Assembly: GCA_964627935.1 (NCBI GenBank)
Contig: CAZVLB010000001.1
Span: forward strand, 308,626 to 372,625
DNA: 64,000 nucleotides
Direction of reading: 5' to 3'
DNA from: an uncultured Ignavibacteria bacterium
Lineage (GTDB): Bacteria > Zixibacteria > MSB-5A5 > JAABVY01
Shown one piece after another: positions 605 through 56,607 of this stretch (its first letter is position 1; each line of letters begins with the position of its first letter). The notes under the pieces are model-generated. The model saw nothing but the letters and a program-made list of their open reading frames with translations, had not been told where the DNA came from and searched no databases. A program made the translations under genes and the position numbers.

Positions 605-605
<1 letters not shown>

Positions 606-1870
606 TGAATCTTTTTCGTGCTAATAGATCTGTTTCCGGCGCAGTCAGCGTATCATTTCTGTTCAGGGTCTTTCTGATCCTGGGTTTTATATTGATTGCG
701 ATTGTTTTTATTTATTACACCCAGCATGTGGTCGGTAAGCTCAAGACCAATTCCTCCCGAATGGTCAACCTCAGTATCAAACTCCTGCAACTTGAACTAT
801 CCCAGGAGGCCTCCGGTGTGGCTACCGGCGTTATTTTCGACGAGATAATCGCGCCTACGAATATACCGATTATCATTACCGACCGGGAGGGCAACCCGCT
901 TTTCTTCAGGAATATATCTGCCATCGATGAGCGCGAGGTTACCCCGGAGAATATCGATAAGCTCAGGCAGATAATCAAGGGCATGTATGAAAAACACGGC
1001 CGTTTCCCGATCAAGCATATCGATCGCGAAACAGGCACTGAGACAATAATTAACTACTTCTATTATGGCGACCCGCAACTTATCCAGCAGCTACAGGCTA
1101 TGCCCTTGATCGAAATCGGCATAGTTGCAGCTTTTCTGATGGTGGGATATATAGGATACAGAAATATCAAACGCTCCGAACAGCATTTTATCTGGGTCGG
1201 CATGGCCAAGGAAACCGCACATCAACTGGGTACGCCGATCTCATCGCTATTGGGATGGCTCGAGCTTTTAAGGACGCGTGATGAGCAATCGGCCGCCACC
1301 AATGGAAAATATAATCTCGAGCAGGTCAGCGATCGGATGTCCATGGATATCGAAAGGCTGCAGAAAATTGCCAATCGCTTTTCGCTGATTGGTTCGCGGC
1401 CCACAATGGCCACGGTCGATTTGAACAAAATAATATCCGATGTGGTTGATTATTTTCGTGACCGCCTGCCATATCAGGGGAAGGGTATCACGATCAATTT
1501 TAACCCTGGTAAAATAGCGCCTGTCAGGATCAATGCCGAGCTGATAAGCTGGGTGGTGGAGAATTTGATCAAGAATTCGATGGAGGCCTGCGATCCCCGC
1601 GAGGGAAGAATTATGATCGCCACGAGCATGTCCGCTGATAAGAAATCAGTAATTGCCGAAATAGGCGATAACGGCCGCGGTATTCAGCCCAAAAATCAGA
1701 AAAAAATCTTTGATCCGGGATTCACATCCAAAAAGAGAGGGTGGGGCTTGGGGCTTTCGCTGGCACGCCGCATTATCCGCGATTACCATAAAGGAAAAAT
1801 ATTTCTGAAGTCATCAGTTCCCGGCCGCGAAACAGTAATACAGTTCACATTGCCGGCTGAAGCGGATTAA
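605..1870 (+). CDS. Membrane sensor histidine kinase (PorY-like, partner of the downstream REC-PglZ regulator)
   Basis: Two hydrophobic segments (VSFLFRVFLILGFILIAIVFIYY; IEIGIVAAFLMVGYIGY), H-box HQLGTPISSLLGWLELL, HATPase_c G-boxes (EIGDNGRGIQP; GWGLGLSLARRII). Start ATG overlaps the serS stop (TGATG). Confidence 0.85.
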
Positions 1871-1945: not shown

Positions 1946-3514
1946 ATGCAGTCTAAAGAGGAAAGCCGACGGATTCTCTGGGTTGATGATGAAATTGAGC
2001 ATCTCAGGAGCCATATAATATTTCTCGAGGAACGCGGATTTGAAGTCACGCCGGTATCATCCGGCTTTGATGCCGTGCAGGAAGTTAAAGACAATGTTTT
2101 CGACCTTGTGCTGCTTGATGAAATGATGCCGGGTATGGATGGTCTGGCGACGATGGAAGAGATTAAGGCCATCAATCCCAATCTGCCCGTGGTCATGGTT
2201 ACCAAGAGCGAGGAGGAGGATTTGATGGTGCAGGCCATCGGCCGTCAGATAGCCGATTACCTGACCAAGCCGGTCAATCCCTCCCAGGTTCTTCTGGTTG
2301 CCAAGCGTATCCTGGAGAGCAAACGGATCCAGCAGGATCATTTCACCCGTGACTATGTGCAGCAGTCCAATGCCTTGCGCACGCGCCTCTATGGTCCCAT
2401 GGAACCGTCCGACTGGATCGATGTGCACAGATTGCTCTCGCAGTGGGACGTGGAGATGGATCGTAATCCGGATGTCGGCTTCAAGGAATCACAGGCTGAT
2501 TTTCGCAAGGAATGCAATGTCGAGTTTTCAAAACATCTCGAGAAAAACTATAAATCATGGGTAAATTCCAACAAGGGCCCGGTTATGTCTCCTCAGGTTG
2601 TAAGCGAATATGTTATTCCGCATCTTCGCAAAAACCAGAAGGTTTATTTTATAGTAATCGACTGCATGCGCCTTGATCAATGGCTGACTTTTGAGCCGGT
2701 GGTTGCCGATTATTTTAAAGTTGAAAAGGACTACTATTTTTCGATACTGCCCACCGCCACGCCATTCGCCCGTAACGCCATCTTCGCCGGCGAATACCCG
2801 GATAAAGTGGCCGAGATACTTCCCAACCTGTGGAAAAATGACGGCCGTTCCGAATCATCATTAAACGCCGATGAAGATAAGCTTCTAAAACGCCAATTGG
2901 AAAAGAAATTCGTCGATCTCAAGGGCGAACTCTATTATTCCAAGGTCCTGGAGCAGAGGGAGGCCGAAAACCTGGCCAAAAAAGTGCCATCATACCAGAA
3001 TGTCGGATTGATGGCTATGGTATTCAATGCCCTTGACCTGATGGTTCATGGCCGCTCGGAATCAGATATTTTGCTTGAGGTTGCTCCCGATGAATCAGCT
3101 TTCAGGTCCCTGATGAAATCATGGTTCATGCATTCCTCTCTGTTTAGCATCCTGAAATACCTTTCACGCATTGATTGCAGGGTTGTAATCACAACCGATC
3201 ATGGCTCGATCCTGGCCAACAAGGAAACTACGGTCAAGGGACGCAAAGAAGCCTCAACCAATTTGCGTTACAAATATGGCGATAACCTGAACTGCAATCC
3301 ACGGGAAGTTGTGCTGATTAAAAATCCCGAGGATTATCGGCTTCCGCGTTTTGGCGTATCGACCACGTATATTTTCGCCAAGGAAGATTACTATTTCGTC
3401 TATCCGACACAATACCACAAGTATGTTGCCAAATATGCCAATACGTTCCAGCATGGCGGCATCTCACTTGAAGAATGTGTCCTGCCGGTGATAACTTTGT
3501 CTCCGCGAGGATGA
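1946..3514 (+). CDS. Response regulator with N-terminal receiver domain and C-terminal PglZ (alkaline-phosphatase-like) domain, PorX-like
   Basis: REC motifs (ILWVDDEIEHL; DLVLLDEMMPGMDGLATMEEIK; phospho-acceptor Asp context), followed by a ~350-aa region consistent with PglZ. Length 522 aa matches PorX (518 aa). Confidence 0.75.
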   Translation: MQSKEESRRILWVDDEIEHLRSHIIFLEERGFEVTPVSSGFDAVQEVKDNVFDLVLLDEMMPGMDGLATMEEIKAINPNLPVVMVTKSEEEDLMVQAIGRQIADYLTKPVNPSQVLLVAKRILESKRIQQDHFTRDYVQQSNALRTRLYGPMEPSDWIDVHRLLSQWDVEMDRNPDVGFKESQADFRKECNVEFSKHLEKNYKSWVNSNKGPVMSPQVVSEYVIPHLRKNQKVYFIVIDCMRLDQWLTFEPVVADYFKVEKDYYFSILPTATPFARNAIFAGEYPDKVAEILPNLWKNDGRSESSLNADEDKLLKRQLEKKFVDLKGELYYSKVLEQREAENLAKKVPSYQNVGLMAMVFNALDLMVHGRSESDILLEVAPDESAFRSLMKSWFMHSSLFSILKYLSRIDCRVVITTDHGSILANKETTVKGRKEASTNLRYKYGDNLNCNPREVVLIKNPEDYRLPRFGVSTTYIFAKEDYYFVYPTQYHKYVAKYANTFQHGGISLEECVLPVITLSPRG

Positions 3515-16978: not shown

Positions 16979-17245
16979 GACCTCCTCCATCTCTGAAATC
17001 TGGATACGAAAAACTGGACAAAATAGTTTCATTTCAACTTTGAGCGAGAAATCATCGCCTTACAAAAAACCGATGACATTTATGTCCAGAAGGGAGGTTG
17101 TTTTTTGAAAGCCCATATATAGTATTGGTTTTGATGTAAATTGATTTTAAATTGTCAGGGTCATGAAATGCGCATAGGAAATCAAAAAAAATCTAACTTG
17201 CTTTTTTTTGAATAGGCTCTTAATTGGGCGGTAATTGGTGTAGTT

Positions 17246-23430: not shown

Positions 23431-24513
23431 TCAAAATCTTACCAGAAATCCGAGTGTTGCCGAGAAGCTGTCATATTCAAAAAGCTTATAGGTTGAATTA
23501 TTATTCTGATAATCTATTCTTAAAGATGGCTCCAGGTGTAAACCCGAACTCATCGGCATCGGCCAGCTGGCATTCAGGTACAGCCGCCTCTGGTCGTCAT
23601 TGCGATGCCTGACCCAATCGAGGGGCTCGAGGCTGGTCAGAAAACGTTTATCCCAGTAACCCGCTCCGCCTGTCAGGATTACGCTGGGTATTATATATGC
23701 CTTAAGATTCAAGATAACCGACCTGCCATCCCAGACCGAGGCCCATGGCGACAAAAAGCCGGTGGCATAACTGAGCACATACTGCCCTCCATAATCGGAG
23801 AACTCGGAATAATAAAATGTCAGGTTCATGCCGATTTTATTGCCCAGCGGACGGGAATAGCGGGGGGAGAAGTAAAACATCTTCAGGTCACCTTCGATAA
23901 AACCCAGCACCTGGGGCCAGGTGTAAATCGTTGATGTGTCGATGTAATTATAATTGGCGAATGAATAACCGACCTCGAGGTCAAAGCTGTTTTTGCCGAA
24001 CAGGGTGACATTGCTTCCCGCGAAAATCTCGAAGGCCTCTTTATCGGCTTCATCGGAGTTGACATATTTCGAACTGCTGTATTTGGCCCCAAAACGTATC
24101 TGCGCAGTACCCGTAAGATTAAATCCCATAGATGCCAGCATATCCAGGTCATTTGTGTTATAGACACTGAATGACTCTCGATATGAACGACTCTGATAGT
24201 TAAGATTGAGGTACAGCGCCAGGGGAAAATTATCGGGAGTCGGAATGGCGGTTATCGATCCGCCCGCTACAATATTGCCCAGGCCGACAATTTCATGATA
24301 ATAATTGTATTCGCTGTTCAGACTGATTTCCACCTGGGGAATTGGATAATAATTAAATCTGCCGGCCGAGCGTGAATAAGAATCGCTTATCCCCGATGAA
24401 TCGAGCAGAAGATTGTCGCTGAAGTTCTTGCTGAAATTGAATTCAAAACCGAAATCGGCATAGGCGCCTGATGCCATCAGGAGAATTAAAGCGGAAACAA
24501 GTAATGATTTCAT
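23431..24513 (-). CDS. Putative outer-membrane beta-barrel protein
   Basis: Signal peptide (LLVSALILLMASGAYA), alternating hydrophobic/aromatic-rich beta-strand pattern, C-terminal ...LGFLVRF ending in Phe. Confidence 0.6.
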   Translation of the reverse strand: MKSLLVSALILLMASGAYADFGFEFNFSKNFSDNLLLDSSGISDSYSRSAGRFNYYPIPQVEISLNSEYNYYHEIVGLGNIVAGGSITAIPTPDNFPLALYLNLNYQSRSYRESFSVYNTNDLDMLASMGFNLTGTAQIRFGAKYSSSKYVNSDEADKEAFEIFAGSNVTLFGKNSFDLEVGYSFANYNYIDTSTIYTWPQVLGFIEGDLKMFYFSPRYSRPLGNKIGMNLTFYYSEFSDYGGQYVLSYATGFLSPWASVWDGRSVILNLKAYIIPSVILTGGAGYWDKRFLTSLEPLDWVRHRNDDQRRLYLNASWPMPMSSGLHLEPSLRIDYQNNNSTYKLFEYDSFSATLGFLVRF

Positions 24514-24531: not shown

Positions 24532-24978
24532 TCAGTAACACACTCCGCCCGGGCAGCCGCTCGAGACTGCGCCGCTGCCAATACCATTGCCGGCCCCGAA
24601 ATCATTACCGGCCTCGAAGCCGCCGCGCAGGCTGGAAATCCCGCAGCAGTTGCTTGAAAGCCTGCCGAATCTTTCGGAGTTGGCCATGTATATTGTCAGG
24701 TCGAATGTGTTTAGCTGTCCAAAAGGTGAATTGGTGGGCTGTTCTATATCTTCATTTGATTCCTGATTGTATTCGTTTTCCTTGTTCTCGGAAACATCCG
24801 GGATCCCGTTGGCATCTTCATCAGTCAGATTATCATCAAAACCATCGCCGTCACGGTCGACAAATGATTCTTCGGCCTGTTTGTCCCTCTCAACATCATT
24901 CGCCGAAACAAATGCCGGTATGATCAGAAATAGAGTAAACATAAGGAGTGTGAGAGTTTTAATCAGGGTTGATCTCAT
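24532..24978 (-). CDS. Small secreted acidic protein with calcium-binding-like DxDGDG motifs and a Cys/Gly-rich C-terminus
   Basis: Start at internal ATG preceded by AGGAGG; signal peptide; DRDGDGFDDNLTDEDANGIPD (TSP3/EF-hand-like); C-terminal GNDFGAGNGIGSGAVSSGCPGGVCY. 19 bp upstream of the OMP gene, likely co-transcribed. Confidence 0.5.
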   Translation of the reverse strand: MRSTLIKTLTLLMFTLFLIIPAFVSANDVERDKQAEESFVDRDGDGFDDNLTDEDANGIPDVSENKENEYNQESNEDIEQPTNSPFGQLNTFDLTIYMANSERFGRLSSNCCGISSLRGGFEAGNDFGAGNGIGSGAVSSGCPGGVCY

Positions 24979-25183
24979 GCTGATCCTCCTGCTGTCTATA
25001 CAAAGCTTTAGGTTTGATTTTTCTCGCATTCAATTGAACTATAATATATACGCTTAAAAATATAATCAATTAGCTAAGTTTATCAAGAAGATAAACTATT
25101 TTCTTCGTATCACATATAAACAAAATAACACAAGTGATCCAATATCAGCAAATTAAACCAATTTGGCCGGAAAATGCCATAAA

Positions 25184-25294: not shown

Positions 25295-26722
25295 ATGCGC
25301 ATCACGAGATGTAAACACATCCGGCATTCTGGCGCAATTCTATTTTCTCTCCTGTTTTTATTGATCTCAGCAGTTACACTGACAGCCTCGGACTTCGTGG
25401 CTGACAAGGACAAAGCCTGTCTCTATGAAGGCAATCTTGAAAGTGTGCAACCGGCTGATCATGAATTTCCGGAGGGTCTTAAGAATCGTGCGCCCTACCA
25501 GGGGGTATTGAAAATTTATGTCTGCGAAAAGGTCTCACGTTATAATGATTATCAGGGCGATCCCTACGAGCATGGATTTCTTGAGTTTGCCTATGATACG
25601 TCATTGAATCTCGAGTATCAGCAGACATTTAATCGCACGCTTACATGGGATCCCGCCAATCATGGCTGGAGCGGCGTTACCTCCGATAATATCGAGGTGA
25701 TCGCGGTACTTTTTAACCACATGGAAGGCCATCATGCTTATTCCGATCCGCCCAGCGGTGGTCATTTTCTGGCCTACTATGCTGATGCGACTGCAAAGGC
25801 CGAACCGGGTGGAACCGGCCATAATCAGGCCAGTGGCAGTTATACTCATACAGTATTTGTTGAAGAAGCAACATCGGGTACATGAGGATCCTGTCCAGCA
25901 ACGCGGGTCGCGTTGAGCACACTGTACGGGTTCGGAACCCACAATTTCCACTATGTTGCATTAGTTACCCAAAATTCATATGTTGGCCAGAGATTGAGCC
26001 AGCTAAATACCTACTATACTCCAACGACATACATCGATGCCGGCCAATCGCTTGTGGTCGGTGGCTACAGTAACCCCAGTTATTATGGCGGATTTATTGA
26101 AACCTCCGGCGAAAGACAGGTGCCCGAAATAGACCTTATCGTCAGTATGACCGCACAGGCAGGAAATACATATGAAATTGATATTTCGGCAACCCTGAAT
26201 ACTTTTATCAATGCCCCACCAAACAAGCCCTCGATCCCGGCCGGCGTGCAGCAGGGCACACTCATGACCGATTAAACTTACACAAGCTCGACAACTGATA
26301 TTGAAGGTGACCAGTTGTGGTACAAGTGGGACTGGGGTGACGGTCAGCAGAGTGACTGGCTGGGACCGTATGAATCCGGCGAGGAAGCTTCGGCTACTCA
26401 CAGCTGGGATGTGTCAAATACATACCAGATCAAGGTCAAGGCCAAAGATATCTATGATGCCGAAAGCTTATGGTCGACAGCATTCTTTGCTTATTTTGAA
26501 GGTATGCCATATATTTGCGGTGATGCAAACGGCGATGAGGGGATCAATGTCTCCGATGCTGTCTGGATCATCAACTATGTGTTCGTAACCGGAAGTCCTC
26601 CACCGGATCCATTGGAATCCGGCAATGTCAATTGTGACAGCGGAGTGAATGTCTCCGATGCTGTCTGGATCATCAATTACGTTTTCGTAACCGGCAGCCC
26701 CGGACCATGCGAATGCAAGTAA
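25295..26722 (+). pseudogene. Secreted PKD-domain / dockerin-like protein gene interrupted by two in-frame stop codons (TGA 25883-25885, TAA 26273-26275)
   Basis: ORFs 25262-25885, 25913-26275 and 26315-26722 are all in the same frame. SD GGAGG and signal peptide at the 5' end; a PKD domain (TYTSSTTDIEGDQLWYKWDWGDG...) straddles the TAA; the dockerin-like module is at the 3' end. Confidence 0.6.
26546..26694 (+). repeat. Intragenic tandem duplication of the dockerin-repeat coding segment (two ~47-bp near-identical copies, 102-bp period)
   Basis: AATGTCTCCGATGCTGTCTGGATCATCAACTATGTGTTCGTAACCGG (26546-26592) vs AATGTCTCCGATGCTGTCTGGATCATCAATTACGTTTTCGTAACCGG (26648-26694); related copies occur in the five other dockerin-family genes on both strands. 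Confidence 0.8.
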
Positions 26723-26740
26723 TATAGAATACCACTATTG

Positions 26741-26777
26741 ATCCGCGTCTGATATACTGGACGCGGATTTTTTTTTG
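26741..26777 (+). terminator. Rho-independent terminator after the interrupted dockerin gene
   Basis: ATCCGCGTC-tgatatactg-GACGCGGAT followed by a 9-T run. Confidence 0.8.
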
Positions 26778-26790
26778 GCTTTTCCACATA

Positions 26791-26815
26791 ATACAAGATG
26801 TAAAAAGTCTTGTAT
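26791..26815 (+). promoter_or_regulatory. 8-bp perfect inverted repeat between terminator and promoter upstream of the C25-like gene
   Basis: ATACAAGA-tgtaaaaag-TCTTGTAT immediately 5' of the putative promoter. Confidence 0.25.
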
Positions 26816-26842
26816 GGCATTCAATCACATAGAGTTAAATGG

Positions 26843-26870
26843 TTGACATTGAAGTAAATCTAAATATATT
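26843..26870 (+). promoter_or_regulatory. Putative sigma-70-type promoter for the C25-like peptidase gene
   Basis: TTGACA (26843-26848), 16-bp spacer, TATATT (26865-26870), ~155 bp upstream of the start codon. Confidence 0.3.
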
Positions 26871-27026
26871 TAGAGTACAAATGATGGTCATATCTGTCTC
26901 ATTTATGGTCTTACATACGCTATCCTCAAAAGGATGGACTTCTATGGGATAAAGCAACAGGCTTCCAAAAGTTTTTTCTCACAAAAGTGAAAATGATAAT
27001 CTTCATATAATCCGAAGGGAAAAAAG

Positions 27027-29531
27027 ATGCAATCGGACAGCTCATGCGCCAAAAAATCAAATGTGATTAGAATCACTATTCTTTCATTTTTTTCTGTACT
27101 GGTCTTGACTGCGGCCCTCTATGGCGGAGAGGTCACGGTCAGTTATGATTTCCAGGCTCCTGTTATTGAGAAGGTCATAATCGATGGCAAGATGTATGAT
27201 CGAGTGATCATGCCACAGACCTCGAATGGGGGAGAGACGGGCGAGCCCTCATTGCCATCCTCCGGAGCAAAAATTCTGATTCCGGCCAACTCCCGGGTTG
27301 AATCAATCCAGGTTACATTGGGTGATGAAATCTCCCTGGGCGATGGATTCTCAGTCGAGCCGTGTGGCTATCCGTTCAAGCTAAGCGCGCCCGAAGAGAT
27401 AGTTCCACCGCAACCGGATGCACAGATATATTCATCCGATGAGGCTTTTCCGGGAATAACGTATGAGCGAATAAATACTTATACATTGCGTGGCTATGAT
27501 ATCCTTATCCTTAAGCTTAATCCGGTACAGTATAAGCCGCTCAGCGGTGAACTTTCCTATTCTGATCAAATGCAGATTACTGTCAATACTGCAGATGCAG
27601 TTTACAGCAGGGAGACTTTTCGGGGAACGGCATCGGATGAACAGTCCGTGATCGATATCGTGGACAATCCCGAGACAGTTTTTTCGTATCGATCACTGCC
27701 GTCAAAAAATTATGGCGGCCGCGATCAATATGATCTGTTGATCATCACCAGCGAGGCGCTTAAACCGGCTTTCGATACGCTCAAGGCCTACCATGATTCC
27801 ACCGGAATGTCGACCTCGATACGAACCGAAGTCGATCTTGATATTTCCAGCGCATACCTGGTGAGAAAGTATATCAGGGATTTCTATAATGACTATGGAA
27901 TCGAGTATGTCCTGATAGGTGCGGATGATAATATCATCCCGGCTATGGATCTGTATGTGAAATCGTGGGACGGATATAATCCAGAAATTGAATATGAAAT
28001 GCCCGGCGATATCTACTTCGCCTGCCTTGATGATACATGGAATCATGACCGCGATGAGCACTGGGGAGAACCCAATGATGGGCCCGACGGCGGTGATGTC
28101 GATCTTATGGCCGATGTAAATGTCGGCCGTGCCTCTGTGGGCAATATCCCTGAGGCCAACAACTTTGTGCGCAAGACCATTGATTATGCCAACCTGTCCC
28201 GTTCGCAGCCGTATTTGCAGAATATCCTGCTGGTGGGTGAACATCTCGGTTTCGGGGGAGTCAGCGAATATGCCGGTAACTGCATGGATCAGCTCAAAAA
28301 CACATCATCATCAGACGGCTATACGACAACCGGGTTCGACACCAGCCTGTATGTTGTCGACCAGCTTTATGACCGCGACTGGACCGGAAACAACTGGCCC
28401 AAGGCTCAGGTTGTAAATCGCATAAATGAGGGCCGTCATTTTGTAAATCACCTCGGTCATGGCAGTCCCGGCTATGCCATGAAAATGTATAACAGCGATG
28501 TTGCCTATCTGACCAATGATGATTACTGCTTTGTATACTCGCAAACCTGCCTGGCGGGACATTTTGATAACACAGATTGTTTTGCCGAGTATATGACCAT
28601 AAAATATATGAATGGCGCATTTGCAATTGTCATGAATGCCCGTTACGGCTGGGGAATGTCAAACAGCACCGATGGTCCCTCGCAGAGATTCCACAGGCAG
28701 TTCCTGGATGCGATTTATGCCGAAAACACGCGCTCATTCAGCAAAGCCAACCATGATTCCAAACATGACAACCTGTATCGAATAAATCAGAGCTGTATGC
28801 GCTGGTGCTATTATGAGCTCAACCTTTTCGGCGATCCGACACTGGAGATGAATTATCACTGCGTCGATCCGGATGCCGATGGTTTTGCCACGCCCGGTTA
28901 TGAAAACAGCGAATGCCCGACCGACAACTGCCCCGGTTTTTATAACCCGGATCAGCTCGACAGCGACGGCGATGGTTTCGGCGACAGCTGTGACCTGTGC
29001 CAGGGATTCGATGATAATATAGACAGCGATGCCGATGGTGTCCCGGATGGCTGTGATATGTGCGCCGGTTATGACGATTATGCCGATGCGGATGAAGACA
29101 CTGTTCCGGATGGCTGCGATGTCTGCCCGGGTCATGATGACCTTCTGGACAGCGATGGCGATCTGCTGGCAGATGGATGTGATAACTGCCCCGATCATGC
29201 CAACGCCGAACAGCTCGATTATGACCAGGATGGGGTCGGAGATTTATGTGATAACTGTCCCGGCGACAGCAATCCGGATCAGGCCGATTCAGATTCTGAC
29301 GGTACCGGCGATGTCTGCGAATACATATGCGGTGACTGTAATGCCGATGGCGCGGTGAATGTCTCCGATGCGGTCGGTATTATCAATTACGTGTTCGTCT
29401 CAGGCAGTCCGGAACCGGATCCGATGGAATCCGGGGATGTTAATTGTGATGATAATGTTGATGTGTCCGATGGTGTTTACATCATCAACTTTATCTTTAC
29501 AAATGGGGATAACCCCTGCGACTGTGAATAG
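27027..29531 (+). CDS. Secreted clan-CD cysteine peptidase (gingipain/C25-like) with thrombospondin type 3 repeats and C-terminal dockerin-like module
   Basis: Signal peptide; His-Gly (VNHLGHGSPG) and Cys (YSQTCLAGHFD) dyad motifs in caspase-like order; ~8 TSP3-like repeats (DxDxDGxxDxCDxC); C-terminal CGDCNADGAVNVSDAVGIINYVF...PCDCE. Confidence 0.6.
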   Translation: MQSDSSCAKKSNVIRITILSFFSVLVLTAALYGGEVTVSYDFQAPVIEKVIIDGKMYDRVIMPQTSNGGETGEPSLPSSGAKILIPANSRVESIQVTLGDEISLGDGFSVEPCGYPFKLSAPEEIVPPQPDAQIYSSDEAFPGITYERINTYTLRGYDILILKLNPVQYKPLSGELSYSDQMQITVNTADAVYSRETFRGTASDEQSVIDIVDNPETVFSYRSLPSKNYGGRDQYDLLIITSEALKPAFDTLKAYHDSTGMSTSIRTEVDLDISSAYLVRKYIRDFYNDYGIEYVLIGADDNIIPAMDLYVKSWDGYNPEIEYEMPGDIYFACLDDTWNHDRDEHWGEPNDGPDGGDVDLMADVNVGRASVGNIPEANNFVRKTIDYANLSRSQPYLQNILLVGEHLGFGGVSEYAGNCMDQLKNTSSSDGYTTTGFDTSLYVVDQLYDRDWTGNNWPKAQVVNRINEGRHFVNHLGHGSPGYAMKMYNSDVAYLTNDDYCFVYSQTCLAGHFDNTDCFAEYMTIKYMNGAFAIVMNARYGWGMSNSTDGPSQRFHRQFLDAIYAENTRSFSKANHDSKHDNLYRINQSCMRWCYYELNLFGDPTLEMNYHCVDPDADGFATPGYENSECPTDNCPGFYNPDQLDSDGDGFGDSCDLCQGFDDNIDSDADGVPDGCDMCAGYDDYADADEDTVPDGCDVCPGHDDLLDSDGDLLADGCDNCPDHANAEQLDYDQDGVGDLCDNCPGDSNPDQADSDSDGTGDVCEYICGDCNADGAVNVSDAVGIINYVFVSGSPEPDPMESGDVNCDDNVDVSDGVYIINFIFTNGDNPCDCE

Positions 29532-29550
29532 TATAATTTAGTATAAAGAC

Positions 29551-29590
29551 GGCCCGGTCAGAGCTTTTGGCCGGGCTTCTTATTATTTGA
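29551..29590 (+). terminator. Rho-independent terminator after the C25-like peptidase gene
   Basis: GCCCGG-tcagagcttttg-CCGGGC followed by TTCTTATTATTT. Confidence 0.6.
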
Positions 29591-29614
29591 CAAATTTCGC
29601 ACTTGAGTTATATT
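29587..29614 (+). promoter_or_regulatory. Putative sigma-70-type promoter for gene 29729-31210
   Basis: TTGACA (29587-29592), 16-bp spacer, TATATT (29609-29614); same architecture as the 26843 element. Confidence 0.3.
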
Positions 29615-29728
29615 CTCATAAGGTACAACCGGCCATCAGGGCCGAAATTACCTGCCTTAAATTTACAGGCTTGATTCATAGACCTTAGTACCCGATAGTA
29701 AATATATATTGCCTGAAAGGGACCTGTT

Positions 29729-31210
29729 ATGAAATTAAAATCAGCATCACTAATTATTTTCATGCTTCTAATGGCCGCTGTAACATTAAACGCTGCCAAC
29801 CGGGTGATAATGAATTCGATTCCGCAATCGCCGGTTCATAATACGGAAACTGTTCTTCAGATTGTGACTCAATGGGAAAACGACATCCTTCTGCAGGGCG
29901 TTTCCAATGGATTCGAGTTGACTGTCAGTGGAAATATCGTTTGTGAGATAGATTCCGGAAGTGCCGCAATCGTAGCAGGAAGCCGTCTTGACGGCGCAAT
30001 GGGCTGGAATTTCCGCTATTACCAGGCGCCGTTCGATTCAATAATCATGGGCGGTATCTATATTCCCGGCACATATGATGGTGTGCCCGCCGGAGCATTA
30101 GCTGATGCCTGGACAATGGACCTGAACCTGTCTTATCCCGGCGGAGATCCGGTAACAGATACAGGAACGGTATGTATTGACTCATTGTCGATCTCACCCT
30201 CGGGGCAGTGGATCTGGGATGACGGTACGGGAAACATCAATCCGACTTTTAATGACGGCACGGGTCCGTTGTGCATAGAGGTTGTCTGGCAGATTTGTAC
30301 CGATTCCGATAATGACGGCTATGGTGATCCCGGATTTCCCGAGAATGAATGCCCTGATGATAACTGTCCCGATGTCTTCAATCCGGATCAGCTTGATTCC
30401 GACGGTGATGGTGTCGGCGATTTGTGTGATATCTGCCCCAATCATGAGCTGGATGATTGCTGTAATCCCACAGTAGATAATAATGCACCTCAGATTACAT
30501 CACCATCCAGTATAACGGTTCTTCCGGTTGTGGATGAGGTCAATTATATTGCTGAATGTGATGATCCCGATTGTTCGGGCGGTGAATTGATTTTCAGTGT
30601 CGAGAATGTGCCCGCATGGCTGATTCTCAATGGCGATACGATAAGCGGCACGGCATCATGCGGCGAAGAGGATGCATTGCTGAGACTGATCGTTTCCGAC
30701 GGCACATTGGCGGATACGCTGATAGTCACGGTTGATGTCGATAATAGCAACCAGGCACCACAGATTACAGATCCGGCCGATACGATCAAAGTCTATAACG
30801 GTACTGAATTTGTGTATTATCCGACCATCGATGATCCTGATGATGCTACCCATACGATTAATTATCTGGCATTGCCCGACTGGGCCTCGGTCGTAAATGA
30901 CAGTGTTAAGGCCACCGTACCGTTGGTCAATAATATTCAGGACCTGACAGTGGCTGTCTCCGATGTTTGCGGCGCGGACACATTGAGCTTCCCGGTCTGG
31001 GCCTATATCTGCGGTGATGGTAATAATGACGGCGATGTAAATGTCAGTGATGCTGTCTGGATCATCAACTATGTTTTTGTCAGTGGTGATGCTCCGCTGC
31101 CGATTGAGGCCGGAGATGCTAACTGCGACGGCGATGTTAATGTCAGCGACGCGGTCTGGATCATTAACTTTGTATTCGTCAGCGGCCCGGCCCCCTGCGA
31201 GTGCCCATAA
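29729..31210 (+). CDS. Secreted protein with TSP3 repeats, Ig/cadherin-like domains and C-terminal dockerin-like module
   Basis: Signal peptide (LIIFMLLMAAVTLNAA), TSP3 repeats (DSDNDGYGD...CPDVFNPDQLDSDGDGVGDLCDIC), C-terminal [23 protein letters not shown]...PCECP. Confidence 0.65.
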   Translation: MKLKSASLIIFMLLMAAVTLNAANRVIMNSIPQSPVHNTETVLQIVTQWENDILLQGVSNGFELTVSGNIVCEIDSGSAAIVAGSRLDGAMGWNFRYYQAPFDSIIMGGIYIPGTYDGVPAGALADAWTMDLNLSYPGGDPVTDTGTVCIDSLSISPSGQWIWDDGTGNINPTFNDGTGPLCIEVVWQICTDSDNDGYGDPGFPENECPDDNCPDVFNPDQLDSDGDGVGDLCDICPNHELDDCCNPTVDNNAPQITSPSSITVLPVVDEVNYIAECDDPDCSGGELIFSVENVPAWLILNGDTISGTASCGEEDALLRLIVSDGTLADTLIVTVDVDNSNQAPQITDPADTIKVYNGTEFVYYPTIDDPDDATHTINYLALPDWASVVNDSVKATVPLVNNIQDLTVAVSDVCGADTLSFPVWAYICGDGNNDGDVNVSDAVWIINYVFVSGDAPLPIEAGDANCDGDVNVSDAVWIINFVFVSGPAPCECP

Positions 31211-31233
31211 TTTGTTTACAATTAAGTGATTTC

Positions 31234-31265
31234 AACCCGGTCGAAAAGTGGCCGGGTTTTTTTGT
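31234..31265 (+). terminator. Rho-independent terminator after gene 29729-31210
   Basis: ACCCGGTC-gaaaagtg-GCCGGGT followed by a 7-T run. Confidence 0.65.
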
Positions 31266-31569
31266 TTGCTGATCGTGATTTAGAAAACATATTTGTCAAT
31301 TTGCCGTACACCATACTGATCCCTCGAACCATAATTGAACTGTCAAAATTAAAACTGCGAATATTGTTCTCTCTGCCTTCCCCAGTGATGAGGGCGTTTT
31401 CCAATTTCTCCTTACCTTGTCACGCAACGATGCCGGGCGGATTGCATGGCCGCCCGGCGCTTTAATATTATCTGCAATTTTGCGATTGACTAATTAAACC
31501 AAAACCTTAGATTTATTATATACTCCATATAATTTGGAAATTCCGCATACCCTTTCCCTGGAGTGAAAA

Positions 31570-33222
31570 ATGAAAATCAAATATTTTTCCGTACCGGTGA
31601 TAATTTGTATGCTTTTTATGGGTGAAACACTTCTCGCCCAGCAAAGCACTACCGGCCCGGTACCGCCCGAAGGTGTTGATCTGGGCTCGACATTGAAGTC
31701 AAGGTCGCAGGTGACGATTGAAGGGGTACCCCGTTATATCTGGCATCACGGCTGTGGGCCGACTGCGGCCGGCATGGTGATTGGCTATTGGGATGGACAT
31801 GGCTATGGTGACCTTGTTGATGGTGAGGCGATGGTCCAGCTCGGAAATGTCAAGACAATGATTGCAAGCGATAACGGCCTGGCGGTCTGCAATGATGTCT
31901 TCGCCGATCATTACCGCGATTATTCATGTCCGCGTGATGACACGGGGCCGCTTCTGGCCGATAAATCTGAGACAGGTGGAGCGCATGAAAATGAATGCCT
32001 GGCTGATTTTATGAAAACATCATGGAGCTCAATCGGCAATCGTTATGGCTGGAGCTATGACAGTGATTTGCAGATTTCACTGGATCAATATGTGCCGTAT
32101 GTAAATCCGGCCTATAGCGTGGAGACCGAGAATATTGCCTGCTGGGATGCTGAATTCAGTTGGCAAAGATACAAGGCCGAAATCGATTCCGGGCGGCCGG
32201 TGGTACTTCTGGTTGACACTGACAGCGACGGTTCTACCGATCATTTTGTGACAGCGATCGGCTATGATGACTCAAGCCTGGAATATGGAATATATAATAC
32301 ATGGGACACACAGCTTCACTGGCACAGCTGGGCCGATATTTCCCCGGGCCAGCCCTGGGGAGTTTACAGCATGACGACAATGAAGTGGACCGGTATATGT
32401 GTTGATTCAGATGGCGATAACTGGGGCGACCCCGGTCATCCGGAAAACATATGCGATACCGATAACTGCCCGGATGTCTACAATCCAGCCCAGGATGATA
32501 CAGATGGCGATGGGCTGGGTGATGCCTGTGATCCTGATATCGATGATGATGGATTCCTTAATGAAGATGACAACTGTCCCTATGCTCACAATATTGATCA
32601 GTCCGACACTGACGGCGACAACATAGGTGATGTCTGCGATAATTGCCCGATAGTTTCAAATCCGATGCAGTGGGATGAAGATTCCGATGGCGTCGGAGAT
32701 GCCTGCGACGGCCAGTTGCATATGCAATGCTATGATGTGCCCGATGGAATAATAGGGGAGCCGTATTCATATCAATTCCAGGCTGTGGGTGGTGTGACAC
32801 CCTATAACTGGGAAAAAGTCTGGGGGCAGTTCCCCTATGGTTTGAGTTTCGACAATCAAACAGGGATACTGCAGGGCATACCGACATGGGAGTCGGATTA
32901 TAGTTTCCGTATGCGTGTTACCGATTCCGATTCACCGATGAATGAAGATACCATGCTGATTACGATAGTCATCAGCCAACCACCGCAACCGGATTATATC
33001 TGCGGGGATGCAAATTCCGATGACGACGTCAATATCAGCGATGCCGTATTTGTCATAAATTATATTTTCGTTGCCGGTACTACTCCCGATCCGATTGACT
33101 CGGCGGATACGAATTGTGATGATGGTGTCAATATCAGTGATGCAGTCTGGATTATAAATTTCGTTTTTGCCGGCGGCAATGCGCCCTGTGATACGAATGA
33201 TGATGGTCAGCCCGACTGCTGA
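31570..33222 (+). CDS. Secreted papain-like cysteine peptidase (C39/C10-like) with TSP3 repeats, He_PIG-type Ig domain and C-terminal dockerin-like module
   Basis: Signal peptide; putative catalytic Cys in [17 protein letters not shown]; TSP3 repeats; putative Ig motif ([29 protein letters not shown]); dockerin-like C-terminus. Confidence 0.55.
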
Positions 33223-51713: not shown

Positions 51714-53969
51714 TCAGCAATCACAAGGCGCGGGGCCGTTTGCGAAAACCCAGTTAATCAGCCAGACTGCGTCGGAGACGTTTACATCGCCGTCGCAATT
51801 GACCTCGCCCGACTCTATCGGGTCAGGGGAGGGGCCGTTCAGGAAGACATAGTTGATAATCCAGACCGCGTCGGAAACATTAATCTCGCCGTCATTATTG
51901 GCATCGCCACAGGTATAGCCGTTATCCTCGGTTACCACTATTGTAAGCCAGATTGTGTCCGAACTGGGCGGATTGGATGAATCCTCGACACCCATCTTGA
52001 AGCTGAATTCCGAGGCCCAGGTGGGAACGCCGGAGAGAATCGGCGGATCACCATCAGTATATTCCAGGCCATAGGGGAATTGTCCGGTCAGATGTGTCCA
52101 GGTATAAGGTGGTACACCACCGATAGCATTGAATTCCTTTTCGAAATACTGCCCCAGATAGGCCGTATCGACCGGATTGGAGATTATCGCCATCCCGAAG
52201 GGCGCTTCTGTCTTGGTGCAAAGAACCCATTCTGTCGGATCGAATTTAATCGAATCAACCGGTTGCGGAACATCCAGCACAAAACTCTGCGTGCGTGTCG
52301 AATTAAATACCTTGTAGATCGAATCCTGGCCATTGTAGAAAACCTGTATATCTATCAGCATGGGGAAGACATTCCAGTTGAACTGAGGTCCAACCTGCGT
52401 CTGTTCGATATACAAGACCACTTTATCGCCATTGCCGTTATTGTAATTGGTCCAGCCATATTCATAGTGGGGATTACCATATTGATATACCCAGGCGTTA
52501 AAGAACCACTCCAGATCATCACCATATACCGCCTCGGCATGAGCGACGAAATCATCGGTAACGGCTGTACCGTAGCGAAGATCAGGATCGGACTGATAGT
52601 TGCGCAATATCTGGAACATGGCTGAATCTCCGACAATGGAACGCAACATATGCAGAACTCTGGAACCCTTATTGTAGGTTGATCCGCCATCGAATATATA
52701 GCCGGTGTCGAGATCATAAACATAAACCGGATCTTCATTCAGGCAGGACTGCGTATGAATATAATCATGATAAAACCCGGTGCCGAAGATCTCTTCGAAA
52801 TACAGCGCTTCCGAATACGTGGCAAAACCCTCATTGAGCCAGATATGATGAAAGCTTTCACAAGTGATCAGGTCGCCCCACCAGTGATGAGCCATTTCGT
52901 GGATAATGATCCATTCATTTACGATGTAATGTACCAGTGCTACCATGGTCTGGTTTTCCATGCCCCACAGATCATAAATCGTCTGGCCGTATTTCTCGTC
53001 GATGAAGGGATAGAGGCCGAATATATCCGAAAAAATCTGCAGTCCCGGAATCGTATAGGTCAGATAATTATTCACTGCCTGAGGGTAACCGTCATAGGCG
53101 TAGACCACCACCGGCATAGTGTCGCCGGGAGCATATTCCCAGGCCTGTTCATAAAGATTCTGGTTGGCGCAGGTAAAATGGATCAGGTAGATTGCCATCG
53201 GGTATGTGCTCTTCCAGTGTGTGGTGCTGGTCCCGTCGCCGTTGGAATTAATACTTTGCAGGAGACCATTGGCGCAGGCTGTCATGGACGATGGATGGGT
53301 CACACGCAGGTCGAGGCTGTCGATTTTATCATAGGGGAAATCTTTGCATGGAAACCAGTTTCGTGAACCGAACGGTTCGCATTCTGTCTGGCAGATGGAG
53401 CCGTTGTAAATCGCATCGAAACTCAATCCTCCGCCGGTGTTATTCTGGGGAGTTCCTATAAATGGCGGCGAGCCATGATACTGCACAGTTACCGCGAAAT
53501 CTTCGCCGATATTTGCAGGCTCATTAAGATAAACGGTAAACAGCACTCCGTTTTGCAGATAGCTTGCCGGCTGACCGTTGATACTGACATCGTCGATGGT
53601 AAGCGCGCTGGTGAAAGTCAGGTCAACGAGTGCAAGATTGTCCACATTGGATTTTGCATTAACTGTCGTAACACCGGAAATTGTCTGGCCGGAAAAATCC
53701 AGGGCGATATCGATATCATAATGGGTGACATCATACTGAAACATGTTGGATGTGGGGCTGCTCAGGCCATAGGGGCCGTCCAGCCTTTTTGTGTCATGCC
53801 CATGATTCTTGATAATCTCCGGGCCTAAGATTTTTCTGCTTTCCAGAATCCATTCTCTGATATCACCTTCATACGGCGGCAGTTGCGGAATCTCCCGGTC
53901 GTTTTCGGCCAGCAATACACCGCACAGGATAAGGCATACCAGTCCTGTCAGATAAAACAAGAGCTTCAT
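51714..53969 (-). CDS. Secreted M1-family zinc metallopeptidase with He_PIG-type Ig domain and C-terminal dockerin-like module
   Basis: Signal peptide; HEMAHHWWGDLITCESFHHIWLNEGFATY (HExxH-x18-E M1 signature); putative Ig motif GGVPPYTWTHLTGQFPYGL; C-terminal [23 protein letters not shown]...PCDC. SD GAGGAGG upstream. Confidence 0.82.
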   Translation of the reverse strand: MKLLFYLTGLVCLILCGVLLAENDREIPQLPPYEGDIREWILESRKILGPEIIKNHGHDTKRLDGPYGLSSPTSNMFQYDVTHYDIDIALDFSGQTISGVTTVNAKSNVDNLALVDLTFTSALTIDDVSINGQPASYLQNGVLFTVYLNEPANIGEDFAVTVQYHGSPPFIGTPQNNTGGGLSFDAIYNGSICQTECEPFGSRNWFPCKDFPYDKIDSLDLRVTHPSSMTACANGLLQSINSNGDGTSTTHWKSTYPMAIYLIHFTCANQNLYEQAWEYAPGDTMPVVVYAYDGYPQAVNNYLTYTIPGLQIFSDIFGLYPFIDEKYGQTIYDLWGMENQTMVALVHYIVNEWIIIHEMAHHWWGDLITCESFHHIWLNEGFATYSEALYFEEIFGTGFYHDYIHTQSCLNEDPVYVYDLDTGYIFDGGSTYNKGSRVLHMLRSIVGDSAMFQILRNYQSDPDLRYGTAVTDDFVAHAEAVYGDDLEWFFNAWVYQYGNPHYEYGWTNYNNGNGDKVVLYIEQTQVGPQFNWNVFPMLIDIQVFYNGQDSIYKVFNSTRTQSFVLDVPQPVDSIKFDPTEWVLCTKTEAPFGMAIISNPVDTAYLGQYFEKEFNAIGGVPPYTWTHLTGQFPYGLEYTDGDPPILSGVPTWASEFSFKMGVEDSSNPPSSDTIWLTIVVTEDNGYTCGDANNDGEINVSDAVWIINYVFLNGPSPDPIESGEVNCDGDVNVSDAVWLINWVFANGPAPCDC

Positions 53970-54021: not shown

Positions 54022-56607
54022 CTAAATTGGACACGGTGGCGGACCACCGGAGAAGATATAGTTAATGATCCAGACCGCATCGGAAATATTCACCGCATCA
54101 TCGCAGTTGACATCGCCCATATACAATGGATTGGGCGGCGGACCGCCGGTGAAGACATAGTTGATAATCCAGACCGCATCGGAGACATTAATCTCGCCAT
54201 CACCATTACAGTCGCCTCTTATACTGGGTGATTGAGAGTCCAGGATGAAGAAAAACGGTTGCGCCTGGTAACCGCTTCCGAATCCATCCTGGTTGAATGC
54301 CTCGACATGCCAGTAATAGAAGCCGTCGGTCAATGATGCGGCAGGTGTATATGTGGTGTCATTGATATCTGCATAAGTGGCTACATTGACAGTGAAATTC
54401 TGGTCCTGGGCGATTTGCAATGTATAATCTCCGCCGCTACCGGCTGTTGAGGTCCAGACGAACTGGGGCGTTTCATCGCTGGTTGTACCGCCGTTGGCGG
54501 GACTGATCAGAGTCGGCTTATCAGGCGATTCACCTTCGAGCACATATATTCTGATCGTTATCGTGTCGGCATTGGGCGGAGTGTCGCTGTCTTCTACTGC
54601 CAAAGTGAACTGAAAATCCGAGGCCCAGGTTGGAGTACCATCCAGGTAAGCCGTATTTTCGTTATGGAATGTCAGCCCATAGGGGAACTGGCCGGTTACC
54701 AGGCTCCAGTCGTAATCCGGCACACCTGCCACCGCGGAGAATTCCATGTAATAGGGCTGACCGACATAGGCCGTATCGACTTCTTTGCTGGCCAGGATAG
54801 CCATCTGAAATTCCTCGCTGAACTCAACCGTCCGGAGTATTTTTTCATCCGGATCGATCTGCACCGAATCAGGCGGATTGGGAACATCAAACTGCCAGAC
54901 CTGTCCACGCTGGCTGTTGAAGACTGTCAGAGAGGTGTCATATCCACCGGCAAAGATGTTGACATCGATTGGCATGGGAAAAATCGCGCCGGCCTGTTCC
55001 TGCTTGATCAGGAGATACATGTCATATCCACCATTTACCGTATCCGCCTCATGCTGGAAAGCGTAAACATAATTTGGGTTGCCGGGCTGATATATCCAGC
55101 TGTTAAAAAACCAGCCCATATCCTGACCGTAAACCTGGCTGCAGACTGCGGAAAGGTCCTCGGTTGAGGCATCACCATAAGAATACAGCGGATGATTGAA
55201 ATAGCTGTCCAGGGCCTCGCGAAAGAGCGAATCGCCCATCACCTGGTGCAGCATATATACAACCCATGATCCCTTGTCGTAGACGGTAATGCCATCGAAT
55301 ATATCATCGTTAATCAGGTCCTCGACATAGGGAGTTCCGGCGTCGAGATGTTTCTGGCCCTCGAGCCAGCTTTTATAATAGTTCTCTCCATAATGATATT
55401 TGAAATAAAGCGCTTCCGAATAAGAGGCAAAACCCTCGTTGAGCCACATATGATGAAATGTCCGGCAGGTTACCTGATCGCCGGCCCATTGATGGCCGAG
55501 CTCATGCGCAATCACATATTCTGAATCGAAATAGGGCGAAATCGAAGTCAGCGTTTGGTGTTCCATGGCACCGCCCCAGCCATAGTTGCTGTGGCCATAC
55601 TTTTCATCTATAAAGGGATACAGGGTAAACCAGTAGGATAAAGCTTCCAGCGAGGGATTGGTATAATTCAGCGCATAGTAGACTGAATAGTACTGGCTGT
55701 GCTGGCTGATTCCGGGATAGCCGTAGGTCTCGATCGGCATAGTCTGGCCCGGAGCATATTCCCATGTGTCGGTGAACAGGTTATAATCCGTACATCCGAG
55801 ACTTACCAGATAAGTTGCAATCGGATATTTATGCGACCAGTGAGTTGTGTATGTACCATCGCCGTTACTTGTGGAACTGATCTTGACACCGTTGGAGGCG
55901 GCCAGGTAACCGGATGGATGCGTGATCAGGATGTCGATTGAATCCGGTTTGTCATTGGGATGATCCTCGCAGGGCCACCACAGCCGTGAGCCCCATGGCT
56001 CGCAATTGGTATACGCAACCGGGACGCTTCCCCAGCTATAGAATTGAAGCCCGTCGGTGCCGTCAAAGCCCGGTGTGCCGCCATATTCAACTTTGACAGT
56101 GAACTCATCACCGACGCTAAAGCTTTGCCCCAGGTAGATCGTCAGAAGTTCCGCGTTGTGATTGTAATTGCTGATCGGGCTGCCGTTTAAATAAACCGCG
56201 GAAACATTCAGGAGCCCGCCGTTATTGGTCAGATTGAAATCAACGGCATTTGTATTGTCGTAAAGTGCCTTAAGGCGGGATTCGACATAGCCGTCGATCG
56301 TATAGCTCGAAAAATCCAGCTCGATAGCGATCTTGTAGTAAAGTATATCGACCTTGTTCTGATTGGTGGTTGGTTCGATATTGGTTGATACCAGTGTGGA
56401 TTTCAGATTGTTCTGGAATTTTTCTGTTTTATGCATGCAGGCATGTTTCTCGAGCCTCTGCTCGAGCATCTGCTGCCATTCTTCCGCATCCGGCGGATCA
56501 AGGGTGCCGCGATAAGTTTGCAGCAATTCAGCTTCGGCTGATGGCTGGAAAATTAATATTGCAAAGATCAGGAAGGCTATAAAACCGGCTGTATTTTTAA
56601 GACTCAT
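54022..56607 (-). CDS. Secreted M1-family zinc metallopeptidase, paralog, with C-terminal dockerin-like module
   Basis: Signal peptide; HELGHQWAGDQVTCRTFHHMWLNEGFASY; putative Ig motif; extra beta-rich domain; C-terminal [22 protein letters not shown]...PCPI. Only 52 bp upstream of the paralog, probably co-transcribed. Confidence 0.82.
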   Translation of the reverse strand: MSLKNTAGFIAFLIFAILIFQPSAEAELLQTYRGTLDPPDAEEWQQMLEQRLEKHACMHKTEKFQNNLKSTLVSTNIEPTTNQNKVDILYYKIAIELDFSSYTIDGYVESRLKALYDNTNAVDFNLTNNGGLLNVSAVYLNGSPISNYNHNAELLTIYLGQSFSVGDEFTVKVEYGGTPGFDGTDGLQFYSWGSVPVAYTNCEPWGSRLWWPCEDHPNDKPDSIDILITHPSGYLAASNGVKISSTSNGDGTYTTHWSHKYPIATYLVSLGCTDYNLFTDTWEYAPGQTMPIETYGYPGISQHSQYYSVYYALNYTNPSLEALSYWFTLYPFIDEKYGHSNYGWGGAMEHQTLTSISPYFDSEYVIAHELGHQWAGDQVTCRTFHHMWLNEGFASYSEALYFKYHYGENYYKSWLEGQKHLDAGTPYVEDLINDDIFDGITVYDKGSWVVYMLHQVMGDSLFREALDSYFNHPLYSYGDASTEDLSAVCSQVYGQDMGWFFNSWIYQPGNPNYVYAFQHEADTVNGGYDMYLLIKQEQAGAIFPMPIDVNIFAGGYDTSLTVFNSQRGQVWQFDVPNPPDSVQIDPDEKILRTVEFSEEFQMAILASKEVDTAYVGQPYYMEFSAVAGVPDYDWSLVTGQFPYGLTFHNENTAYLDGTPTWASDFQFTLAVEDSDTPPNADTITIRIYVLEGESPDKPTLISPANGGTTSDETPQFVWTSTAGSGGDYTLQIAQDQNFTVNVATYADINDTTYTPAASLTDGFYYWHVEAFNQDGFGSGYQAQPFFFILDSQSPSIRGDCNGDGEINVSDAVWIINYVFTGGPPPNPLYMGDVNCDDAVNISDAVWIINYIFSGGPPPCPI

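Follow-up and report, generated by a model that had tools for sequence, protein, structure and literature searches.

Secreted peptidases of an uncultured Zixibacterium end in a predicted type I dockerin, with candidate cohesin partners that carry type IX sorting domains in related genomes

In a 64-kb stretch of DNA from an uncultured Zixibacterium (hereafter the window), which was studied entirely in silico, six genes encode secreted proteins that end with one shared module. An initial annotation had described this module as dockerin-like. By sequence and by predicted fold it is a true type I dockerin. In Zixibacteria it is best explained as a tag shared by the C-termini of dozens of secreted enzymes in each genome, most of them proteolytic, and we consider it reasonably probable that these dockerins assemble proteases on cohesin-bearing scaffold proteins (scaffoldins), which would be anchored through the secretion system of type IX (T9SS), giving rise to a cellulosome-like complex at the cell surface.

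A hidden Markov model derived from the six C-termini and run against all six-frame open reading frames (ORFs) of at least 60 amino acids found exactly six module-bearing proteins in the window, the same six that had been annotated (genes 1 to 6, Table 1). All six matched the Pfam family Dockerin_1 (PF00404) with scores of 29-43 bits, above the gathering score of 22.9, and 71 of 76 related bearers matched it at E<=1e-4. In the module a unit of ~22 residues occurs twice in tandem, each copy having a 12-residue calcium loop of the pattern D1-N3-D5-N9-D12 followed by a hydrophobic helix. This arrangement, which had already been noted in the initial annotation, holds in both halves, and its loop positions are 95-100% conserved among 91 unique modules (D1 100%, N3 98%, D5 97-98%, N9 95-97% and D12 100%, taking both repeats). 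The AlphaFold2 model of the gene 3 copy, made with 125 homologues, has a pLDDT (predicted local distance difference test) of 93 and the three-helix fold of dockerins (helices 22-33, 42-45 and 55-67). When the model was compared with the PDB by Foldseek, ranks 1-33 were all solved dockerins, with TM (template modelling) scores of 0.6-0.8 and a root mean square deviation (rmsd) of ~2 Å, and EF-hand proteins such as parvalbumin appeared only as noise. The label 'dockerin-like' was right about the kinship but understated it. The module belongs to an already defined family, although one that serves assembly and not sorting.

A terminal sorting signal was one of the two roles initially proposed, and it found no support. 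None of the six proteins matched the T9SS C-terminal domain (CTD) models TIGR04183 or TIGR04131 at E<=1 (NCBIfam), which agrees with the earlier remark that the module does not resemble known CTDs of type IX secretion, and the modelled module is all-helical, whereas T9SS CTDs are immunoglobulin (Ig)-like beta-sandwiches. The negative scan is meaningful because models of the TIGR04183/PF18962 type do detect CTDs on other Zixibacteria proteins. A divergent T9SS CTD was rejected as the identity of the module on these results.

Between paralogues with unrelated heads the repeats are 64-83% identical at the protein level, well above what chance would give, but synonymous third codon positions agree at only ~52% of the conserved residues. 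High protein identity combined with diverged synonymous sites shows that the similarity reflects selection on the protein; recent duplication or gene conversion as its source could be ruled out. The selected positions include helix as well as loop residues, which are conserved to more than 90% in both repeats of the 91 unique modules. Conservation of this kind, persisting despite synonymous divergence, fits a surface shared with one partner. Because the two halves of the dockerin are almost identical, either helix could face the cohesin, as in the dual binding mode.

Conserved cysteines had been described as bracketing the module. The bracket is present, but it is not uniform: the gene 6 module lacks the cysteine before GD (it reads RGDCN) and ends in PCPI, and gene 4 ends with PC-x10-C instead of PC-x-C, the longer form being the commonest tail in the family. 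The commonest pattern, found in 39 of the 91 unique modules, has four cysteines, located two residues before D1 of the first loop, at position 4 of the second loop and, twice, in the tail; next comes a pattern (12/91) with only the loop-2 cysteine and one tail cysteine. The cysteine count is even in 75 of the 91 modules, and the N-terminal cysteine and the second tail cysteine come and go together. From this co-occurrence we infer two disulfides. One would connect loop-2 position 4 with the 'PC' cysteine and the other the N-terminal with the terminal cysteine, clamping both ends of the module. The pairing is derived from cysteine co-occurrence across the 91 modules. In a 2025 review on the structure of cellulosomes, disulfides come up for engineered systems only, and the natural disulfide clamp may be a little-described variant.

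The heads carried by the six window proteins were identified by Pfam as those listed in the initial annotation, namely peptidase C25, a C39-like peptidase, two M1 peptidases, PKD and Ig-like domains, with thrombospondin type 3 (TSP3) repeats in genes 2-4. A Sec-type signal peptide could be read directly from the translation at the N-terminus of each of the six. The assignment of gene 2 to the C25 family is supported by 171.8 bits for the peptidase and 33.6 bits for Propeptide_C25 (TSP_3 25.5, Dockerin_1 32.1 bits), and the HExxH motif is intact in both M1 peptidases. The N-terminal domain of gene 3 (~170 amino acids) had no family match in Pfam. It was considered as a cryptic cohesin and rejected, since hhalign against the scaffoldin alignment gave a probability of 0.2 and Pfam nothing. 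Judged from these domains, four of the six products are best explained as peptidases, a fifth as a binding protein of the Ig-like/TSP3 kind and the last as a PKD selenoprotein whose frame is interrupted (see below). Orthologues of window genes, 55-68% identical, follow the same order in other metagenome-assembled genomes (MAGs): the order gene 1, C25, C39 is kept in the collected loci L015, L003 and L021, and the tandem of M1 genes (genes 5 and 6) in L006, L033 and L063.

Named homologues come from candidate division Zixibacteria. When GTDB genomes, one for each species, were searched for two peptide patterns of the module, at least 507 confirmed copies were obtained, and the best 80 of these matches lie almost entirely in four Zixibacteria MAGs. 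In 1.12 Mb, comprising Zixibacteria MAG loci and the window, 156 ORFs bear the module, 154 of them in single copy. It ends at most 15 residues from the stop codon in 145 of 155 complete ORFs, and at most 40 residues from it in 153. Each of four related MAGs contains at least 28-38 distinct bearers. By a crude test 95 of 129 bearers complete at the 5' end start with a signal-peptide-like sequence. The heads of 76 bearers scanned with Pfam are mainly peptidases (S8, C1, C25, M1, M14, C39_2, M28, M4), accompanied by PAD_porph (the Porphyromonas-type peptidylarginine deiminase), FG-GAP, PKD and Ig domains; no glycoside hydrolase (GH) was among the 25 commonest families of these 76 proteins. Among the representative clusters of all public data, ~27,000 match the module at E<=0.001, and 5,543 do so at E<=1e-10, showing that dockerins of this general type are very common.

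Cohesins were recognized in related genomes. Two ORFs have the module away from their C-terminus. One of them, at 16096-18372 of locus L030 from the Zixibacteria MAG SpSt-1246, encodes a signal peptide, two stretches that match Cohesin (59 bits), a He_PIG domain, an internal dockerin with a weak match and a type A CTD of the T9SS (TIGR04183, 32.8 bits against 23). The gene directly upstream is built in the same way (Cohesin 30.8 bits, and a CTD), and a third CTD paralogue and a dockerin-bearing gene lie further upstream. About 25 relatives of 740-925 amino acids with the same domains (P0123-P0147) make up a scaffoldin family, whose members are named by NCBI 'T9SS type A sorting domain-containing protein' or 'cohesin domain-containing protein' and assigned to Zixibacteria. 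The C-terminal anchoring module of the scaffoldins in related genomes is a T9SS type A CTD (TIGR04183; PF18962). The model of their central domain, with a pLDDT of 93.9, is a sandwich of nine strands, and the 50 PDB structures that matched it best were all cohesins, 2XDH (an Archaeoglobus fulgidus cohesin) and 2JH2 among them. Cohesin proteins are present in at least six other Zixibacteria assemblies, and tandem scaffoldins with a nearby dockerin gene occur in L030, L079 and L085. A phmmer search of the collected loci with the three cohesin segments of L030 returned self-matches only, and the segments align poorly. No carbohydrate-binding module (CBM) was detected on the scaffoldins. The internal dockerin of the family (profile positions 458-520) is free of cysteines, and its helix reads DVADLV, as compared to NVSDAV in the terminal tags. 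These differences hint at a second cohesin-dockerin specificity, which could allow assembly of scaffoldin to scaffoldin.

One scaffoldin cluster (L084, P0127) comes from sequencing run SRR7048227, and the same run holds the C25 gene of the window at 100% identity. Taking into account this cluster and the cohesin-CTD family of the phylum, an unseen cohesin scaffold, to which the dockerins would bind, appears to be the better of the two roles proposed initially.

Three MAGs contain a different kind of CTD protein. At L017 1738-2916, L027 3-1046 and L038 1204-2322, T9SS-CTD proteins of 350-390 amino acids, with a head of ~290 amino acids that has no Pfam match, are encoded directly upstream of a 620-amino-acid protein with He_PIG and dockerin. 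They could be a second, unrecognized kind of dockerin receptor.

The window itself contains evidence of type IX secretion. A PorX/PorY-like regulator pair had been annotated near its left end. PorX was confirmed by a full-length match (Table 1), whereas the neighbouring histidine kinase is PorY-like by position only, as no PorY-specific model matched it. The full-length PorX indicates that the organism very probably runs a T9SS. In related loci the CTD cargo includes beta-helix proteins, a multicopper oxidase and proteins with unmatched heads, and genuine CTDs of the QNYPNPFNP type co-exist with dockerin proteins in the same genomes. No ORF of these loci joins a terminal dockerin and a CTD.

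The favoured mechanism would run as follows, where we infer that cohesins bind these dockerins, that this genome encodes a scaffoldin, how the cysteines pair and how the enzymes pass the outer membrane. The tagged protein would cross the inner membrane through Sec, after which the dockerin would fold with Ca2+ and its disulfides would form. The folded dockerin would plug non-covalently into the cohesins of the scaffoldins, and these, by virtue of their type A CTD, would be exported by the T9SS and fixed at the cell surface. The outcome would be a cell-bound, protease-rich multi-enzyme complex, similar to a cellulosome in build and aimed at proteins.

Several observations weigh against this mechanism. 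As stated in the initial annotation, the window contains no cohesin: none was found by Pfam in 26 ORFs, nor by the scaffoldin-family profile in all six-frame ORFs, where the dockerin part of the profile alone matched. Nor was a cohesin recognized on the 392-kb contig of the window, as judged from the ~25 scaffoldin-family matches. Tetranucleotide frequencies do not tie L084 to the genome of the window: its correlation with the window is 0.81, below the 0.87-0.96 seen within the window, and the method fails to separate Zixibacteria genomes, other Zixibacteria MAGs correlating with the window genome as well as this genome does with itself. Cohesins (2-3 per scaffoldin, with ~3 paralogues) are far fewer than dockerin proteins, which is also the case in clostridial cellulosomes. 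Many lineages carry dockerins without a known cohesin partner, according to Peer et al. (2009) as cited in PMC8542988. Finally, the dockerin-tagged enzymes have no recognized signal for export across the outer membrane, and their arrival at the surface is assumed.

Some of these points would be explained if the dockerin worked independently of cohesins, as an end-cap stabilized by calcium and disulfides or as a generic binder of a polysaccharide, the outer membrane or another protein, so that the peptidases would be free or only loosely associated with the cell, the situation assumed for many dockerins outside cellulosomes. The lack of a cohesin in the window fits this explanation, and so do the numbers, the ~27,000 clusters that match the module being far above the known scaffoldins and the cohesin-CTD family being small, with ~25 members. 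Dockerins that lack cohesins are on record from each of the three domains of life (Peer et al. 2009, in the form cited in PMC8542988). However, conservation above 90% across unrelated heads extends from the calcium ligands to surface-exposed residues of the helices, as expected for a shared protein partner, and bona fide cohesins occur in the same phylum in genes adjoining dockerin genes. We regard a cohesin-independent role as rather unlikely, though as the most serious competitor of assembly on scaffoldins.

Another explanation is that the proteins depend on the module to pass the outer membrane, be it as a new export signal or by way of a ride on a scaffoldin through the T9SS. Its extreme C-terminal position (145 of 155 ORFs) would be appropriate for an export tag, and the mutual exclusion of terminal dockerin and CTD in related loci, the PorX of the window and the paired cysteines, which fit folding in the periplasm, point in the same direction. 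In Porphyromonas, the gingipain-like C25, PAD_porph and M14 enzymes carry T9SS CTDs; here heads of the same three families bear the dockerin instead. On the other hand, neither TIGR04183 nor TIGR04131 matches the module at E<=1, its fold is helical and not the beta-sandwich of a CTD, a C-terminal position is equally typical of ordinary cellulosomal enzymes, and T9SS export by piggyback is without precedent. An export role is improbable on balance. Its more specific form, in which the peptidases would fold and dock on the CTD scaffoldin in the periplasm and pass the T9SS translocon together with it, seems slightly more doubtful still; if it were true, a single CTD would export and display a set of enzymes that in Bacteroidota each need a CTD of their own. 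That the module is a divergent CTD recognized directly by the T9SS is hardly credible, as nothing but its C-terminal position and the T9SS context (PorX) speaks for it, and it is contradicted by the failure of the CTD models to match, by the predicted dockerin fold and by the genuine QNYPNPFNP-type CTDs on other proteins.

Assembly on T9SS-anchored scaffoldins can be compared with several known systems. The type I dockerins of Clostridium thermocellum, C. cellulolyticum and C. acetobutylicum (1OHZ, 2MTE, 2VN5, 6KGC) are alike in belonging to PF00404, in the duplicated calcium loop and helix, in the three-helix fold (rmsd ~2 Å) and in the C-terminal location on secreted enzymes, and those with a dual binding mode share the near-identity of the halves. 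In contrast to the clostridial cellulosomes, the host is here a diderm of the Fibrobacteres-Chlorobi-Bacteroidetes (FCB) group, the cargo consists of peptidases and not of carbohydrate-active enzymes for the plant cell wall, and conserved cysteines mark the N-terminal edge of the module, position 4 of its second loop and its tail, where they would form two disulfides. In a strict sense the system does not qualify as a cellulosome: peptidases and not plant-cell-wall enzymes dominate, and the scaffoldin has no CBM. What it has in common with cellulosome-like systems is the large number of dockerin-bearing secreted enzymes per genome, with six in 64 kb and at least 28-38 per related MAG.

The Zixibacteria cohesins also have counterparts among non-cellulosomal ones, such as the A. 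fulgidus cohesin (2XDH) and those of Clostridium perfringens toxin complexes (2JH2, 2VO8). Cohesins and dockerins used outside cellulose degradation, often on peptidases, are described by Peer et al. (2009), to the extent that this survey is cited in PMC8542988. Whereas in such non-cellulosomal cases a genome has a single module or a few of them, Zixibacteria have dozens of dockerin proteins in each genome and a T9SS-anchored cohesin family.

The closest parallel is the cellulosome-like system of Ca. Stygibacter (Cloacimonadota), which was deduced purely in silico (Front Microbiol 2021, PMC8542988). This organism is also a diderm of the FCB group, its signal-peptide enzymes with C-terminal dockerins include S8 and gingipain-like C25 peptidases, and its cohesin scaffoldin has a T9SS C-terminal domain for surface attachment. 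It differs in having one scaffoldin of 3,755 amino acids with tandem cohesins and CBM2/CBM3, and in a cargo that includes GH18 and GH57. In Zixibacteria the scaffoldins are tandem paralogues of ~740-925 amino acids with 2-3 cohesin-like modules, He_PIG and a divergent internal dockerin, the cargo is almost wholly peptidases, and the dockerin is probably clamped by cysteines. The novelty that the initial annotation had implied for an architecture of tagged enzymes was overstated, as the same design had been proposed for Cloacimonadota in 2021 (PMC8542988). The module is not a new domain or sorting signal, and standard annotation already calls these proteins dockerin-containing. The features of the Zixibacteria variant are the cysteine clamp, the almost purely proteolytic cargo and the short tandem scaffoldins with an internal dockerin. 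Within the literature library that was searched, no paper named Zixibacteria along with dockerin, cohesin or type IX secretion, and one named Zixibacteria and cellulosome a single time each.

The T9SS cargo of Porphyromonas gingivalis is similar in its heads (C25 with propeptide, PAD_porph, M14), in the uniform C-terminal tag and in the presence of PorX. In that species gingipains, peptidylarginine deiminase and carboxypeptidase bear C-terminal sorting domains. These CTDs are beta-sandwiches, whereas the Zixibacteria tag is a helical dockerin without a match to CTD models.

Zixibacteria are widespread, uncultured bacteria of sediment and groundwater, whose mode of feeding is known from genomes alone. 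If the favoured mechanism is correct, much of their repertoire of secreted proteases, with dozens of enzymes in each genome, would be attached to the cell surface by a single plug-and-socket system that has the T9SS as its anchor. The principle of the cellulosome would thereby be carried over to the breakdown of proteins in a diderm phylum, and this would bear on the recycling of buried organic nitrogen. Dockerins with a natural disulfide clamp, if the proposed pairing is right, could together with matching cohesins provide orthogonal parts for designer enzyme complexes.

Table 1. Positions of the features discussed in the text, numbered from the first nucleotide of the window
Feature	Position	Strand	Basis
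Histidine kinase (HisKA + HATPase_c), PorY-like by position only	605..1870	+	Pfam
PorX, T9SS response regulator (Response_reg + PglZ)	1946..3514	+	NF052313, 665 bits against 300, full length
Gene 1: signal peptide, head with T-[TGA]-G-S-C-P, PKD, dockerin; interrupted	25295..26722	+	Translation, Pfam
Gene 1, in-frame TGA in U-x-x-C motif (candidate selenocysteine)	25883..25885	+	Same aligned position in three orthologues
Gene 1, SECIS-like hairpin CAACGCG-GGU-CGCGUUG, 13 nt after TGA	25899..25915	+	
Gene 1, in-frame TAA inside PKD domain	26273..26275	+	Tyr in all three orthologues
Gene 1, dockerin module, YICGD ... PCECK	26510..26719	+	PF00404 29 bits, alignment
Gene 2: signal peptide, C25 propeptide, peptidase C25 (gingipain family), TSP3, dockerin	27027..29531	+	
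Gene 2, dockerin module	29322..29528	+	PF00404, alignment
Gene 3: signal peptide, ~170-aa N-terminal domain, TSP3-like, two Ig-like domains (weak He_PIG), dockerin	29729..31210	+	
Gene 3, dockerin module (modelled copy)	31004..31207	+	PF00404 35.1 bits, AlphaFold2, Foldseek
Gene 4: signal peptide, C39-like (C39_2) cysteine peptidase, TSP3, He_PIG Ig, dockerin	31570..33222	+	Pfam
Gene 4, dockerin module, tail PC-x10-C	32995..33219	+	PF00404, alignment
Gene 5: signal peptide, M1 metallopeptidase (HEMAH), Ig-like, dockerin	51714..53969	-	Pfam
Gene 5, dockerin module	51717..51917	-	PF00404, alignment
Gene 6: signal peptide, M1 metallopeptidase (HELGH), Ig-like domains, dockerin	54022..56607	-	Pfam
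Gene 6, dockerin module, three Cys only	54025..54225	-	PF00404, alignment

Gene 1 had been annotated as an uninterrupted reading frame, which it is not, as it contains an in-frame TGA and an in-frame TAA (Table 1). Orthologues with 55-58% identity are present in three other Zixibacteria MAGs (L062, L003 and L015), and the TGA is aligned in all four sequences (L062 ~9401, L003 ~587, L015 ~1206), in the contexts EEATSGT-U-GSCP, EEATWDG-U-PSCP and EECTWDG-U-PGCP. The hairpin that resembles a selenocysteine insertion sequence (SECIS) is kept as well, 13-16 nt 3' of the TGA, with a loop of GGU, GGC or GGUCU; it reads CAACGCG-GGC-CGCGUUG in L015 and AACGC-GGUCU-GCGUU in L062 and L003. Together these features form the signature of bacterial selenoproteins, and the TGA probably encodes a selenocysteine in the U-x-x-C redox motif of a secreted, dockerin-tagged PKD protein. 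The genes selA/B/D and tRNA-Sec were not found in the window, which was the only sequence searched for them. The TAA is private to this genome, through either a nonsense mutation or an error in the sequence; should it be genuine, gene 1 would not yield its dockerin. The sole gene 1 product in the protein collection is a tail of 135 amino acids (P0003, NCBI source).

The head of gene 1 did not match any Pfam or NCBIfam family, even after replacement of U by C, and its identity with the Omp28-related selenoprotein NF045500 was rejected on the same result. By its C-terminal part (~271-377) the NF045500 model can be aligned to the TSP3 repeats in genes 2-4, and a weak alignment (E 0.13) was also obtained to the L030 scaffoldin's internal dockerin. 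This known family of secreted selenoproteins may share a tail of the TSP3/dockerin type.

Related modules were also observed outside the single terminal tag of Zixibacteria. Proteins P0159-P0171, P0214 and P0268 of the representative library have 8-21 tandem copies of a related dockerin module; P0159, for example, has 12 dockerin stretches in 1,187 amino acids. MAGs with archaeal or gammaproteobacterial labels also contain cysteine-flanked modules like those of Zixibacteria, at 55-70% identity (L057, L073 and L076 in CAZRMY01, with a Thermoplasmatales label; L060, with a Gammaproteobacteria label; P0058 and P0086, with a Thorarchaeota label), and these reflect either mis-binned contigs or lateral transfer.

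Elsewhere in the window, two tandem paralogues of ~750-770 amino acids on the minus strand (12312-14573 and 14720-17032) combine CBM9_1 with DUF5916 and have neither dockerin nor CTD. Two further minus-strand genes are located next to gene 1 and are divergent from it. One (24532-25029) encodes a secreted acidic protein of 165 amino acids with a cysteine-rich tail, the other (23431-24513) a protein of 360 amino acids that has no family match and looks like an outer-membrane beta-barrel (it ends with ...FLVRF). The arrangement of these two genes and gene 1 is kept in L062 and L074, at 49-52% identity.

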